Part shown: positions 19,850-28,031 of the stretch, piece after piece
Layout: each line of letters begins with the position of its first letter
Numbering within the stretch: the first letter of the stretch is position 1
Origin: Candidatus Lokiarchaeum ossiferum
GTDB lineage: Archaea; Asgardarchaeota; Lokiarchaeia; Sigyniarchaeales; Promethearchaeaceae
DNA: 32,000 bases
Assembly (NCBI GenBank): GCA_025839675.1
Contig: CP104013.1
Coordinates: forward strand, 2,310,001 to 2,342,000
Direction of reading: 5' to 3'
The notes under the pieces: generated by a model
The model's database searches: none
Seen by the model: only the letters and a program-made list of their open reading frames with translations
Told to the model about the DNA's origin: nothing
Program-made: the position numbers and the translations under genes

Positions 19850-21181
19850 TTATGCCTTTTTCTTAGTTGGAGCACTACCAGGATCGATATCTAAGACCAC
19901 ACCGACAGATACGGTTCGGCCCATATCACGGACTGCAACACGACCTAATTCTGGATATTCTTTGAATTTTTCTAATGGAAATTTCTTAATAGGTTGTAAT
20001 CGAACCATAGCAACATCTCCTTTCTTCAAGAATTGAGGATTGTCTTCTATGACTTGACCAGTTCGTGGGTCGATTTTCTTAATAAGTTCAACGAACTTGC
20101 ATGCAATTTGTGCGGTGTGAGAGTGCACAACTGGACAGTATCCAATAGCTAATGCGGTTGGGTGCCAAATAACAATGACTTGAGCCATAATGGATCCATT
20201 TGGTCGAACGGTACAACATGGTCGAGCGGCATCTGCAACAACAGCACCTCGGAAAATGTCTCGCATGGTCACACCACGGATGTTAAATCCAACATTATCA
20301 CCAGGACCTGCTTCTTGCATGGCTTCGTGGTGCATTTCAATGGATCGTAATTCTCCTACGAATTCACTTGGGGCAACTTGGACTTTCATTCCAACTTTCA
20401 TCATACCAGTTTCGATACGGCCGACTGGGACAACTCCTGCACCCTTGATTTTGTAAACATCTTGGATTGGGATTCGAAGACCTTTGTCGGTTGGTTTAGA
20501 TGGGATAGGCAAGTCGTCTAAAATACCTAAGAGAGTCTTTCCTTTCCACCATTTCATGTTTGGGGATGGTTCAACTAAGTTATCTCCAACGTATGCAGAG
20601 ACAGGAACGAAGTGGACATCTGCTTCAGTGTTGTAACCAACAATTTTAAGGAGTCGGGTAACTTCATCCTTAACTTCATTGAAACGTTCTTCAGAATAGT
20701 TGACGGAAGCGTCATCCATTTTGTTAATAGCCAAAATGATTTTCTTAACACCTAAGGTTTTAGCAAGGAAAGCGTGTTCTCGACCTTGTCCGTTGTCAGC
20801 AATAGCTGCACCAAATTCGGATGTTTTGGCAGAGAATACGAGGATAGCTGCATCAGCTTGACTAGCACCGGTAATCATGTTTTTGACGAAATCGGCGTGG
20901 CCAGGAGCGTCAATGATGGTGAAGTATTTGCTTTTAGTTTCGAATTTTCGGAATGCCAAATCGATGGTAATACCACGTTTTCGTTCTTCTGCGAGTCGAT
21001 CCATGAAATAAGCGAATTTCCAGGATTCTCGATCTAAATCTTGAGCCATTTTTTCCATTTCACGGGCTTCTCGATCAGAGACAGCACCAGATGCAATGAG
21101 AACGTGGCCCATAAGGGTAGATTTACCGTTATCAATGTGTCCGATAACGACTAAGTTCATATGTTCTTTATCTTTTGCCAT
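19850..21181 (-). CDS. tuf: translation elongation factor EF-1alpha (aEF1A)
   Basis: G1 GHIDNGKST, G2 RGITI, G3 DAPGH, G4 NKMD, G5 VSA. Domains II/III are conserved (GRIETG, HTAQIACKF, DPRTG, LGRVAVRDMGRTV). 443 aa, ATG..TAA. Confidence 0.95.
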   Translation of the reverse strand: MAKDKEHMNLVVIGHIDNGKSTLMGHVLIASGAVSDREAREMEKMAQDLDRESWKFAYFMDRLAEERKRGITIDLAFRKFETKSKYFTIIDAPGHADFVKNMITGASQADAAILVFSAKTSEFGAAIADNGQGREHAFLAKTLGVKKIILAINKMDDASVNYSEERFNEVKDEVTRLLKIVGYNTEADVHFVPVSAYVGDNLVEPSPNMKWWKGKTLLGILDDLPIPSKPTDKGLRIPIQDVYKIKGAGVVPVGRIETGMMKVGMKVQVAPSEFVGELRSIEMHHEAMQEAGPGDNVGFNIRGVTMRDIFRGAVVADAARPCCTVRPNGSIMAQVIVIWHPTALAIGYCPVVHSHTAQIACKFVELIKKIDPRTGQVIEDNPQFLKKGDVAMVRLQPIKKFPLEKFKEYPELGRVAVRDMGRTVSVGVVLDIDPGSAPTKKKA

Positions 21182-25716: not shown

Positions 25717-25983
25717 ATGGCTAAAAAGAAAGCACCAGCAAAAAAAAAAAAAGCAGCTCCTAAAAAAGCTGCAAGTGGAGCCCGAAGCACATATATTGCT
25801 AAAGCCCCCATAAGACGATTAATGAAAGAAGAAGGCGCCGGATTAGTTGCGGAAGAGGCAGTCGTTCTATTAATTGAAGAATTGACAAAAGTTGCCAAAA
25901 ATTTAACAAAAAAAGCAGTGAAAGTTGTCAAGGACGACAAACGCAAACGTGTTACTGCTGCTGATGTAATTGCAGCAGAATAA
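25717..25983 (+). CDS. archaeal histone-fold protein with Lys/Ala/Pro-rich N-terminal tail
   Basis: From ATG 25717: MAKKKAPAKKKKAAPKKAASGARST, then a histone fold alignable to HMfB (IAKAPIRRLMKEEGAGLVAEEAVVLLIEELTKVAKNLTKKAVKVVKDDKRKRVTAADV vs [56 protein letters not shown]). The track start GTG at 25708 is less likely. Confidence 0.85.
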   Translation: MAKKKAPAKKKKAAPKKAASGARSTYIAKAPIRRLMKEEGAGLVAEEAVVLLIEELTKVAKNLTKKAVKVVKDDKRKRVTAADVIAAE

Positions 25984-26162
25984 ACCTGAAACGCACTTTT
26001 TCGGAATTATTCCTTTTTTCATTTCTTGTATTTTTTTCTTTGATCAATTTCAGTTTTTATTCAAGAAAATGGTTTTCTTATTATTGAATCCTTAGAAAAT
26101 AGTGTAAATCTTGCAATATATAGAATGGACTAAGTGAATTATCAAGAACTTTAAAAAAATAC

Positions 26163-26240
26163 CAGGATACCCATGGAGGGTGAGATGGGGGTTCACCATC
26201 CCACCCAGGGGGAAAAGGGATTATAGGTAGAACGGGTCGT
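26163..26240 (-). other. GC-rich hairpin-forming island, copy 1 (candidate structured RNA / 3' element of the small ORF)
   Basis: About 60% GC over ~50 nt (hand count 31/49), against a ~30% background. Hairpin 26178-26188 GGGTGAGATGG / 26196-26206 CCATCCCACCC (10 of 11 bp, 7-nt loop). Homologous to 26616-26700. Confidence 0.45.
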
Positions 26241-26278
26241 GATATTATGGCTGGAATAATCTGAATTGCGAAAAATTT

Positions 26279-26452
26279 CTATTTTTCTAAATGATCTAGC
26301 TCTTCCACAAAAGTCTCGAGAAATAGATCAAAGATTTCTTGGTTAGTTTCTAAATTTTCTATGAAATTATGCGATTTTAAGAGTTCGAAGTATGCCAAAT
26401 AAACGGATGGAGCCGGTAAGTAGTTCTTGTAATCAATGTCAATAGTTACCAT
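26279..26452 (-). CDS. small acidic protein (57 aa), family member 1
   Basis: Not in the track (<60 aa). MVTIDIDYKNYLPAPSVYLAYFELLKSHNFIENLETNQEIFDLFLETFVEELDHLEK, ATG..TAG. Supported by clear paralogy to 26717-26887 and weaker similarity to 30276-30500. Confidence 0.55.
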   Translation of the reverse strand: MVTIDIDYKNYLPAPSVYLAYFELLKSHNFIENLETNQEIFDLFLETFVEELDHLEK

Positions 26453-26615
26453 AGGAAAATCGTCTTCGATTGTATTGTTGATTATTATAAATGGGAGTAA
26501 TTTTTATTATATAATATATAATATCTCAATTCATCCTTATAAATGTTTATTAAAATTTGCCTTTTTTTTTAATAAAACCGCTTTTTTTGAGGAAAATTCA
26601 GATTCAATGAAAAGC

Positions 26616-26700
26616 AAGGGGGGGTTGGTGGGATCTTTTTTCCGCCAATCCCACCGAGGGGCTAAGGGGCGGCACCTTAGATATGAAGGGTTTTGTTCGG
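26616..26700 (-). other. GC-rich hairpin-forming island, copy 2
   Basis: Hairpin 26627-26634 GGTGGGAT / 26648-26655 ATCCCACC (13-nt loop), plus a second stem 26662-26667 CTAAGG / 26675-26680 CCTTAG. Shares ATCCCACC(C/G)AGGGG and the CGGGT..ATGATAAGG/ATATTATGG tail with copy 1. Confidence 0.45.
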
Positions 26701-26716
26701 GTTTTAATGATAAGGA

Positions 26717-26887
26717 TTAAATGAGAATTTCTGATTCATCAGCTATCACATCTAAAAACAAGTCCAACACTTCCTGAGATACTTCCGGATCATCAACAAA
26801 TTGGTGAGATTTGAGTACTTCAAAGTAGCTAAGGTATGTGGAGGGTGTCGGTAAATAGATATTGTAGTCAATAGTTATCTCAGGCAT
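26717..26887 (-). CDS. small acidic protein (56 aa), family member 2
   Basis: Not in the track. MPEITIDYNIYLPTPSTYLSYFEVLKSHQFVDDPEVSQEVLDLFLDVIADESEILI, ATG..TAA. Paralog of 26279-26452. Confidence 0.55.
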   Translation of the reverse strand: MPEITIDYNIYLPTPSTYLSYFEVLKSHQFVDDPEVSQEVLDLFLDVIADESEILI

Positions 26888-27309
26888 AGTTGATCATGTT
26901 TTTAGAGTGAATTGGGTGTGTGTGTGATTAAAATTTCTTTTAACTAAGTATTATATAGTTTTCAACTATATAAATACTTTCATTTTTTTATTATTTTCTT
27001 CAATGCATATTAGTACTAGTTTTTTAGTACTAAATATGTTTAACGACCATCTAACGTGTTTTAATCAGTTTTAATCACTAAAAAAAGAAATTTGCAAATT
27101 TATGAATTTATGAAAATCATTTGTATTACTTTTATTATTTACAATTCAAAAAGCTGAAAATTCAAAAATGAACTATTACTTGTGAGAATGTAAAATAATT
27201 ATTTATCAATAGAATGCAACAATAGGAGATTGATGACCCAATTTTTCTCTCCCTTTGCTTCTAATGTTATTTTTCCTAAAGATGACTAACTTCCACATGC
27301 CAAACCAGA

Positions 27310-28031
27310 ATGATTCCACATAAAAACCTACCAAAGAATTCAATCATATTATGCCTCCTTAGTTTCACAGTAACATGTTATGAAGCTTCCCCCGTAGCCC
27401 AAAAAAAATTGAAACAGGTATGGATGCAGTCACCCTTCTTTTCCCATCTCATGGAATCAGATCATTACCCAAAGCCAAGAAAATGATGACTCGTATGAAT
27501 ATCCATGAACTACTGCGAGCAATCCGTTCAAAAATACAAAAGCCCGTACAATATACAAACACGTTTATATTTATGAACAATCAATGAAAGGTGTAGTTCC
27601 CATTCGGATGGCCGAAGAAGAGTTGGTTGATGGATGTACAACGACTGTTCCTACGATAAAATTCCCTTTTAAAGAGATTTTTGCAGCTAAATTTTTAGGA
27701 TGGTGGGATATCAATCAAAAAAGAATGAGAAACTCTCTTTCTTTAATTAATCTTATTCCTTTGTTATACAAAATCAGTTCGTCAACTCTACCGCTTGGCA
27801 AAATTAGTTGCAAGAGATCTCGATAAAATTCAATTTCCGATCTTAGAATCTCATTCTCAAAAGGACCATGATATCGATCCCATAATTACACAATGGATTT
27901 CAGATGCAACAAGAGGAACAGTTGAAATTTGGTGGTTCAATGAATCAGGTCACACCATGCCTTTAGATGTACAAGGTGCCGAAATTTGTGAAGCAATTGC
28001 TCCATTTCTGAAGAAATTTGCAATGGGTTAA
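27310..28031 (+). pseudogene. decayed alpha/beta-hydrolase (carboxylesterase / monoacylglycerol-lipase-like) pseudogene
   Basis: Pieces in three frames are collinear with Est/YvaK-type esterases. MIPHKNLPKNSIILCLLSFTV matches the HGFTG block, now degenerate. GMDAVTLLFPSHGI matches the YAPxxxGHG block. FIFMNNQ-stop sits where the GxSxG elbow should be. GVVPIRMAEEELVDGCTTTVP follows. Track ORF 27795-28031 carries the C-terminal FPIL..D..SGH block. Confidence 0.6.

Follow-up and report, generated by a model that had tools for sequence, protein, structure and literature searches.

Why should two small genes lying in tandem each be followed by a block of unusually GC-rich DNA, and why should the reading frame of each stay open past its stop codon and through that block? 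This question is raised by positions 25,984 to 26,887 of a 32,000-nucleotide (nt) stretch of the Candidatus Lokiarchaeum ossiferum genome (contig CP104013.1, positions 2,310,001 to 2,342,000; hereafter the window, meaning the whole stretch). The two open reading frames (ORFs), A and B, lie on the minus strand and encode small acidic proteins (Table 1). An earlier note, made from the letters of the window, had offered several explanations for the GC-rich islands behind them: a structured element of the 3' untranslated region (UTR) or a small RNA duplicated with its gene, stop-codon readthrough isoforms, or a formerly longer gene truncated in both copies. As far as sequence comparison can, our analysis shows that a family of small-protein genes carries, in its 3' region, an RNA stem-loop that is conserved, covaries and has the sense of the genes. 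Of the explanations in the note, a structured element of the 3' UTR that was duplicated along with the gene is therefore supported, and it reaches well past the L. ossiferum genome. We consider it fairly probable that the islands are 3'-UTR stem-loops that were duplicated with the gene and act at the mRNA 3' end, in termination or stability, or as a binding site for a factor. The duplication and the hairpins as such lie far beyond chance.

The GC content of the window is 33% overall, and its two most GC-rich 60-nt segments are the islands themselves, one behind ORF B (26614-26673, 65%) and one behind ORF A (26160-26219, 60%). Their description as the only strongly GC-rich DNA holds for their rank at the top and is slightly overstated in the word "only", since a coding segment at 20220-20279 reaches 58%. 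Each island folds into a hairpin with common arms (GGUGGGAU/AUCYCACC) and a loop of 7 (A) or 13 nt (B), exactly as had been noted, and the hairpins lie 64-75 nt past the stop codon. The RNA hairpin of island A, GGGUGGGAUGG - UGAACCC - CCAUCUCACCC, has 11 base pairs (bp) including one G.U; the best 44-nt local fold of this island reaches -23.1 kcal/mol (z=-6.2 versus dinucleotide shuffles), and the hairpin is kept through compensatory changes in the orthologs L002A and L012. In island B, the corresponding hairpin, P2 (GGUGGGAU - 13-nt loop - AUCCCACC), belongs to the family-wide hairpin described below; its arms are identical in the orthologous loci L002 and L004, which come from two related metagenome-assembled genomes (MAGs), while its loops differ. 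Between copy B and L002, the 3' island shows 86% identity, whereas pS at synonymous sites is 0.37. Copy B also has a tentative candidate for a second hairpin, P1, predicted from three distinct sequences only: in L004 it takes its own register, UAUGG-UCCGCC-CCAUA, with an A-U to U-A compensatory change. The P1 loop CCGCC is complementary to the P2 loop GGCGG, the two become CCGUC/GACGG in L002, which is again compensatory, and one mismatch occurs in L004. The loops of P1 and P2 could thus pair with each other in copy B, a lead that comes from the same three distinct sequences.

The element extends to a wider gene family with members across Lokiarchaeia. Word-indexed protein searches reached three genomes only, and the first genome and metagenome scans with Lokiarchaeum-specific peptide patterns gave no match, so that broader alignments were needed. 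An exhaustive HMMER profile search went further and recovered about 18 further small proteins with a common N-terminal motif, MPxIxIDFxxYLPxPxxFYxYFEILKxHxFI; family members are typically 47-63 amino acids (aa) long and stop at one alignment position. The loci come from Promethearchaeum syntrophicum MK-D1, Ca. Harpocratesius repetitus, other MAGs, Joint Genome Institute (JGI) metagenomes and L. ossiferum, whose third paralog lies outside the window (L026, 859-1041), adjoins eIF-1A and a metallo-beta-lactamase (MBL)-fold gene, and carries the canonical AT-rich form of the 3' element, with an ATCACA box and a GGGAAGG/CCUUCUC hairpin. In 17 family 3' regions we found a hairpin 35-100 nt past the stop; its 5' arm is rich in purines and its 3' arm in pyrimidines (GGGAAGG/CCUUCCC, GGAAGAGG/CCUCUUCC, GGAGGGAGC/GCUCCUUCC and GGUAAGAUGUG/CACAUCUUACC in the family, GGUGGGAU(GG) in the window), and it has a stem of 7-11 bp and a loop of 5-16 nt whose sequence is not conserved. 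Ahead of the stem there are usually a UUCAU-N3-4-(A)AUCAC box and a C-run; behind it comes a pyrimidine-rich tail, and often an oligo-U tract at a distance of up to about 20 nt. TTCAT is present in most canonical family 3' regions, and the box of gene A matches the TTCAT-N3-4-(A)ATCAC of L009, L013-L017, L019-L021 and L026.

To measure covariation, we had to deal with the fact that MAFFT lost the register of the hairpin arms across clades. A 7-bp core was therefore registered manually, with artificial anchors and N-padded loops, for 15 related sequences fitted to the hairpin. In this hand-registered alignment, all cells (105/105) form standard pairs, and five of the seven core pairs have changed on both sides, such as U-A / G-C / A-U at pair 3. 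With 0.71, the covariation score exceeds that of shuffled alignments (0.36 +/- 0.04; 0/500 attain 0.71) as well as the values obtained on sliding the 3' partner by 1-3 columns (0.27 at most). An alignment-free comparison of the best 44-nt local fold with 60 dinucleotide shuffles gave a mean z of -3.4, and 9 out of 17 regions beat all of their shuffles. Read on the ORF strand, each of the seven wobble cells is a G.U pair, which on the opposite strand would become A.C; this indicates that the element works as RNA in the sense of the small ORFs. The test of covariation against codon conservation in relatives, which the earlier note had suggested, thus came out in favor of structure: the stem covaries in the hand-registered core, and the extension frames are not conserved. 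Homologous position together with compensatory changes is what would be expected of a conserved cis-acting 3'-UTR stem-loop, and both were found.

The genes that carry these islands are themselves well supported. The coordinates proposed for ORFs A and B were all confirmed, with starts 435 nt apart, and so was their paralogy, the proteins being 55% identical over 51 aa (E=1e-20). The ratio of nonsynonymous to synonymous substitution (dN/dS) relative to the L002 ortholog is 0.09 for A and 0.12 for B, and judged by these ratios both are real genes under purifying selection. ORF B is annotated as NEF87_001934 in Ca. Lokiarchaeum ossiferum, and the window is 97% identical to the Ca. Lokiarchaeum ossiferum genome CP163304.1. 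A second strain (L001) and the two related MAGs (L002 and L004) have orthologs of A and B that likewise lie in tandem, and synteny is kept in three genomes. In L004 (DOMB18 MAG, 989-1108), copy A has a 4-aa deletion and the GC-rich island is missing. The protein had not been recognized from the sequence, and Pfam and NCBIfam likewise assigned no family to A or B. AlphaFold2 predicts an extended N-terminal segment and two helices (pLDDT, predicted local distance difference test, 70-74), and a Foldseek search of the Protein Data Bank (PDB) with this model returned 0 matches, so the fold is uninformative on function.

Each of the two genes has its own conserved TATA-type promoter and long 5' UTR. 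That of gene B is approximately 58 nt long from the transcription start predicted from the sequence and contains the conserved UUUUAAUCACACACACACCCAAUUCACUC; promoter and 5' UTR together are 91% identical to L002, compared with 87.5% for the coding sequence. The leader of gene B, UUUUAAUCACACACACACCCAAUUCACUCUAAAAACAUGAUCAAC (~26944-26888, minus strand), is almost unchanged in L002 and L004 and holds an AAUCAC motif resembling the 3' box. A plus-strand ORF of 94 aa (26436-26720), which covers the promoter and 5' UTR of gene A and is unannotated in L001, was rejected as spurious. In canonical genes of the family (L026 ~775-790, L013, L015-L017 and L019-L021), a palindrome, TTNGAAAT(A/T)TTCCAA, lies just upstream of the TATA box; it is perfect in the third L. 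ossiferum paralog (TTGGAAATATTCCAA) and absent from window copies A and B. From its sequence, this promoter-proximal palindrome looks like an operator for a dimeric regulator. Canonical family genes of several MAGs are convergent with a conserved oxidoreductase-like gene (L009, 360-704, minus strand, and convergent ORFs in L014, L017 and L019) that has the motif SWAKT..I.IHG..G.C.LER; in L009, the annotated 114-aa fragment overlaps the 3' hairpin region.

Table 1. Features of the tandem small-protein locus and its convergent neighbor, in window coordinates.
Feature	Position	Strand	Remarks
Predicted TATA box of gene B	26967-26976	minus	tatttatata; sequence reading
ORF B, small acidic protein gene	26717-26887	minus	56 aa, isoelectric point (pI) 4.05; stop TAA 26719-26717
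TTCAT box upstream of island B	26683-26687	minus	CCCTTCATA in window, L002 and L004
Island B hairpin P1	26662-26680	minus	CUAAGG-UGCCGCC-CCUUAG; RNAfold and RNAalifold prediction
Island B hairpin P2	26627-26655	minus	DNA arms GGTGGGAT/ATCCCACC, 13-nt loop
T4 tract, candidate oligo-U terminator of gene B	26610-26613	minus	13 nt past P2
Predicted TATA box of gene A	26537-26545	minus	catttataa; AAACATTTATAAGG conserved in L002 and L004
ORF A, small acidic protein gene	26279-26452	minus	57 aa, pI 4.19; stop TAG 26281-26279
CAT-N3-ATCAC box, 3' UTR of gene A	26239-26249	minus	CATAATATCAC; copy A form CAUAAUAUCAC
Island A hairpin	26178-26206	minus	DNA arms GGGTGGGATGG/CCATCTCACCC, 7-nt loop
T7 tract, candidate terminator of gene A	26153-26159	minus	18 nt past hairpin A
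Tailed histone gene (HLoB type)	25717-25983	plus	convergent to ORF A; Pfam CBFD_NFYB_HMF, E=5.9e-11

Archaeal termination relies on oligo-U signals and aCPSF1/FttA and does not require a hairpin. Of the 17 family elements, 10 have a tract of at least four T no more than 25 nt downstream of the stem, compared with a background of 27% (p=0.006, kinship among the sequences not factored in); across elements, the U tract lies 1-18 nt from the stem, and the T4 tract after P2 is retained at 10-13 nt in L002 and L004. A consensus scan of the window for hairpin-plus-T sites gave 8 against 6.6 expected, so that such sites are no general trait of this segment, and it reported neither island. The islands do not have the form of a bacterial-type intrinsic terminator, in which a GC stem is followed by a U run after 0-2 nt, because their U tracts are not adjacent to the stem (18 nt away in A, 13 nt in B). 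As to transcription, Logan contigs from SRR22273277 and SRR3214862x match the window at 100% identity. Unstranded short Logan contigs (SRR32148621/22/23/25) pass unbroken over gene B, island B, gene A, island A and the histone gene as far as its 5' end, beginning in the 5' UTR of copy B, 20 nt inside the predicted transcription start. Probably, these runs correspond to the B35 transcriptome set, which is cited under SRX27494461-66. Given this coverage, the islands are very likely transcribed.

We propose that a tandem duplication of the whole unit (promoter, 5' UTR, ORF and 3' UTR with its hairpin) took place in L. ossiferum, and that the stem turned GC-rich in the tandem copies. With moderate confidence, we place the stem-loop close to the 3' end of the mRNA or at that end itself, a short way ahead of an archaeal oligo-U termination signal, where it may define the 3' end or protect the message against 3'-to-5' decay. 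In addition or instead, the stem-loop and its conserved box may be bound by a factor that acts in trans to control the gene family. It is important to point out that several observations weigh against this proposal. The complete pairing of the core is partly built in, as the alignment was registered by hand to the hairpin, and its 15 sequences are few and related. No such hairpin was found in seven more distant loci (L011, L022-L025, L030 and L031), and copy A of L004 has just a weak AU hairpin (TTTATCAG/CTGATAAA, -5.5 kcal/mol). For copy B, the minimum free energy of the whole region is weak relative to shuffles (z=+0.37; best 44-nt local fold -1.5). A covariance model built on the MK-D1 clade (R1) detects the third L. 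ossiferum paralog (E=6e-4) and misses islands A and B, so that the homology of islands and canonical elements rests on gene homology, position and architecture, with no significant sequence similarity. Finally, the Logan contigs cross the proposed terminators, and termination there is therefore at best partial; moreover, contig coverage gives neither strand nor 3' ends, and the runs behind it are only presumed to be RNA sequencing (RNA-seq).

The open frames past the stops invite two coding explanations. In one, readthrough or recoding at the stop codon would yield C-terminally extended isoforms, with extension peptides such as PFPPGWDGEPPSHPPW or RPLAPRWDWRKKDPTNPP and the hairpin, or a pseudoknot, as recoding signal; in the other, the islands would be remnants of a longer gene that stop mutations truncated in both copies. 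Both draw on the in-frame open stretches of 65 (A) and 59 codons (B), which we confirmed, and the former also on the structured element downstream of the stop. These stretches had been called unlikely by chance at a stop density of 8%; the actual density is 6.2% on the minus strand and 4.5-5.6% in these C/U-rich 3' regions, and shuffles of 210 nt give P=0.026 for A and P=0.015 for B, so that the stretches are unusual as claimed but not extreme. We attribute them to the C/U-rich composition, which is stop-poor. Relatives do not keep the frames open: copy B of L002 reads TAA TTC TAA, a second in-frame stop after a single codon, and the next in-frame stop follows after seven codons in copy B of L004 and in L012. 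Copy A of L002 has an open stretch of 39 codons, yet the nucleotides homologous to the hairpin stand in another frame there, and island indels between orthologs are not multiples of three. Within the window, the stops differ between the copies (TAG and TAA), the hairpin is as far as 64-75 nt from the stop, and the TAA that closes the copy B extension sits within the TATA box of gene A. Across the family, openness past the stop ranges from 1 to 119 codons without a conserved peptide; an open frame with codon conservation in orthologs, the mark of programmed readthrough, was not found. Against the longer gene stand the typical size of the relatives (47-63 aa) with their stop at a homologous position, as well as the profile and Pfam searches, which gave no longer homolog spanning the island. 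Judged from these comparisons, the extensions are non-coding, and we give readthrough hardly any credence and the truncated longer gene just as little. The different codon phases of the 3' arm in the two copies, which the earlier note had taken to favor RNA pairing over a peptide, were the correct clue.

Other readings accept the structure and differ on what it does. The stem-loop and box could be a separate small RNA, either cut out of the 3' UTR or transcribed from a promoter of its own, or chiefly a protein-binding regulatory site, and we regard this as unlikely, although not lightly dismissed. In its favor, arm sequences within clades are conserved past the needs of pairing, as is the UUCAU..AUCAC box, the copy B loops could kiss, with the compensatory pair seen in L002, and the palindrome TTNGAAAT(A/T)TTCCAA near the promoter of canonical genes suggests tight regulation. 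However, the kissing pair is mismatched in L004, and on reading the sequence we saw no element resembling a B recognition element (BRE) or TATA box at the proper distance; the sole AT-rich stretch lies 10-25 nt upstream of the stem, so that a start from an own promoter would fall within the stem. Nor are cognate pairs of 5' UTR and 3' element more complementary than non-cognate ones (-11.7 vs -12.2 kcal/mol), and pairing of the two UTRs in an anti-Shine-Dalgarno (anti-SD) fashion was rejected on these grounds.

The arms are perfect or near-perfect inverted repeats, and a tandem small-ORF-plus-palindrome module superficially resembles a cassette array, as would suit an element acting in DNA: an inverted-repeat operator, a recombination or attC-like site, or a mobile palindrome of the miniature inverted-repeat transposable element (MITE) or repetitive extragenic palindrome (REP) type. 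This is very unlikely in our view, as an arm spacing of 5-16 nt would be intolerable for a dimeric operator, 7/7 wobbles are G.U on one strand and point to RNA, both genes have conserved promoters and are syntenic in three genomes, and the 32-kb window yielded no further copies. The R'/R'' core sites of attC were not seen on reading the sequence, and integron attC organization (R''/L''-L'/R' cores, RYYYAAC/GTTRRRY) was not found in the islands, which were read by eye only. Island A might instead be the 3' stem-loop of the convergent histone mRNA, in the eukaryotic manner; the tailed histone gene is kept in synteny, and a palindrome can fold on both strands. Yet hairpin A lies approximately 195 nt past the histone stop, beyond three T5-T7 tracts, its G.U becomes A.C on the histone strand, island B and the canonical family hairpins do not adjoin histones, a 225-aa gene separates hairpin A from the histone gene in L002, and Rfam Histone3 gave no match, which together leave this idea with very little probability. 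Among the minor candidates that we discarded, a count of CUCC/CCUC motifs is trivial given arm composition; a G-quadruplex or i-motif was set aside on reading, as the C/G runs are not retained in the AT-rich canonical elements, and C/D-box, H/ACA, tRNA-like minihelix and attC were set aside likewise for lack of their defining boxes.

We then compared the 3'-UTR stem-loop with known RNA families and systems. Rfam 15, a comparison that had been proposed with the islands in mind, gave 0 matches over the whole window at the gathering threshold, chance-level matches only at E<=10 over 25900-27100 (at most 18 bits versus thresholds of 37-55) and 0 matches at E<=1 for five canonical family loci; a scan for tRNA and tmRNA found none. 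No Rfam family thus explains the islands. Bacterial intrinsic terminators and REP-type 3' hairpins are similar in being stable 3'-UTR stem-loops shortly before a U-rich tract, with an expected role in 3'-end definition and protection from 3'-to-5' exonucleases. The Lokiarchaeal element differs in that its U tract is 1-18 nt off rather than abutting the stem, and in being gene-family-specific with a conserved upstream box. The histone mRNA stem-loop (RF00032, bound by SLBP) shares gene-family specificity, conserved flanks and inheritance with gene duplicates, but its stem has 6 bp and its loop 4 nt of fixed sequence, whereas the stems here have 7-11 bp and the loops 5-16 nt, and the Lokiarchaeal hairpin belongs to the small acidic-protein genes and not to the neighboring histone gene. 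The combination that defines RF00032 (6-bp stem, 4-nt loop, ACCCA flank, histone strand) was not found, and Rfam gave no match. By analogy with this system, the stem-loop and the UUCAU..AUCAC box might be the target of an SLBP-like factor across Lokiarchaeia, the derived, highly acidic paralogs of L. ossiferum, kept beside the abundant tailed histone HLoB, being dosage-tuned partners of histone tails, a proposal that we consider rather improbable.

A GC-rich hairpin in an archaeal mRNA 3' UTR also recalls the archaeal 3'-UTR selenocysteine insertion sequence (SECIS), a class that has been discussed for Lokiarchaeota as well. The islands are not SECIS elements, because an in-frame UGA is absent (the stops are TAG and TAA, and neither ORF has any internal stop codon) and no model matched at E<=10. 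In the gag-pol readthrough pseudoknot of murine leukemia virus (MuLV), structured RNA likewise follows a stop codon, with a frame that is open beyond it as in this genome; there, however, the structure begins approximately 8 nt after the stop and the extension is conserved, whereas the islands lie 64-75 nt from the stop, with an extension that orthologs interrupt or shift out of frame. In the manner of the Staphylococcus aureus icaR anti-SD, the 5' arm is purine-rich and resembles an SD, and the 3' arm with its flank is pyrimidine-rich and resembles CCUCC. This resemblance follows trivially from arm composition, and unlike in the icaR type, the test of cognate against non-cognate complementarity gave no signal.

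As far as Rfam and our literature searches show, the candidate RNA motif is new, and its kind, a gene-family-specific 3'-UTR stem-loop, is already known. Post-transcriptional control in Asgard archaea is almost uncharted. Our literature searches gave no conserved 3'-UTR element for these archaea, and to our knowledge none has been described from them. The small-protein family is unannotated, and its promoter and UTR signals are conserved. If a factor does control the family through this element, it would co-ordinate 3'-end formation, stability or translation of the family across Lokiarchaeia. The motif is present in L. ossiferum B35 and in P. syntrophicum MK-D1, the two Lokiarchaeia in culture, and is therefore open to direct testing with the cultures and RNA-seq data that exist. 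The analysis also removes a tempting but wrong recoding interpretation.

The convergent histone has a basic N-terminal tail (pI 10.3), and its C-terminus matches the HLoB epitope RKRVTAADVIAAE, which is cited in bioRxiv 10.64898/2026.07.02.735847; the supplementary tables of this Asgard histone preprint do not mention the locus tags. Synteny of the histone gene is seen in L002, L004 and L010. A small acidic ORF next to a histone gene recurs in L002, L004 and L010/L012, whereas canonical family members lack this pairing. The acidic proteins (net charge -9/-11) lie beside a gene for a lysine-rich histone tail, which suggests them as possible partners of the tail. The gene inserted between hairpin A and the histone in L002 (1879-2556) encodes a predicted membrane protein of 225 aa and is absent from the window. 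Contigs L007 and L008 end at 25721 and 25769, 4 and 52 nt inside the histone ORF, and these presumed RNA-seq contig ends would fit a leaderless or very short-leader histone mRNA.

Further upstream of gene B, the plus strand of 27200-28031 carries four short overlapping ORFs (27310-27486, 27420-27587, 27584-27826 and 27795-28031). Judged by sequence, they resemble an alpha/beta-hydrolase pseudogene that has been broken into fragments. In L002, the counterpart of this region (76% DNA identity) codes for an unbroken protein of 260 aa or more (Pfam Hydrolase_4), and the L010 version has 285 aa.

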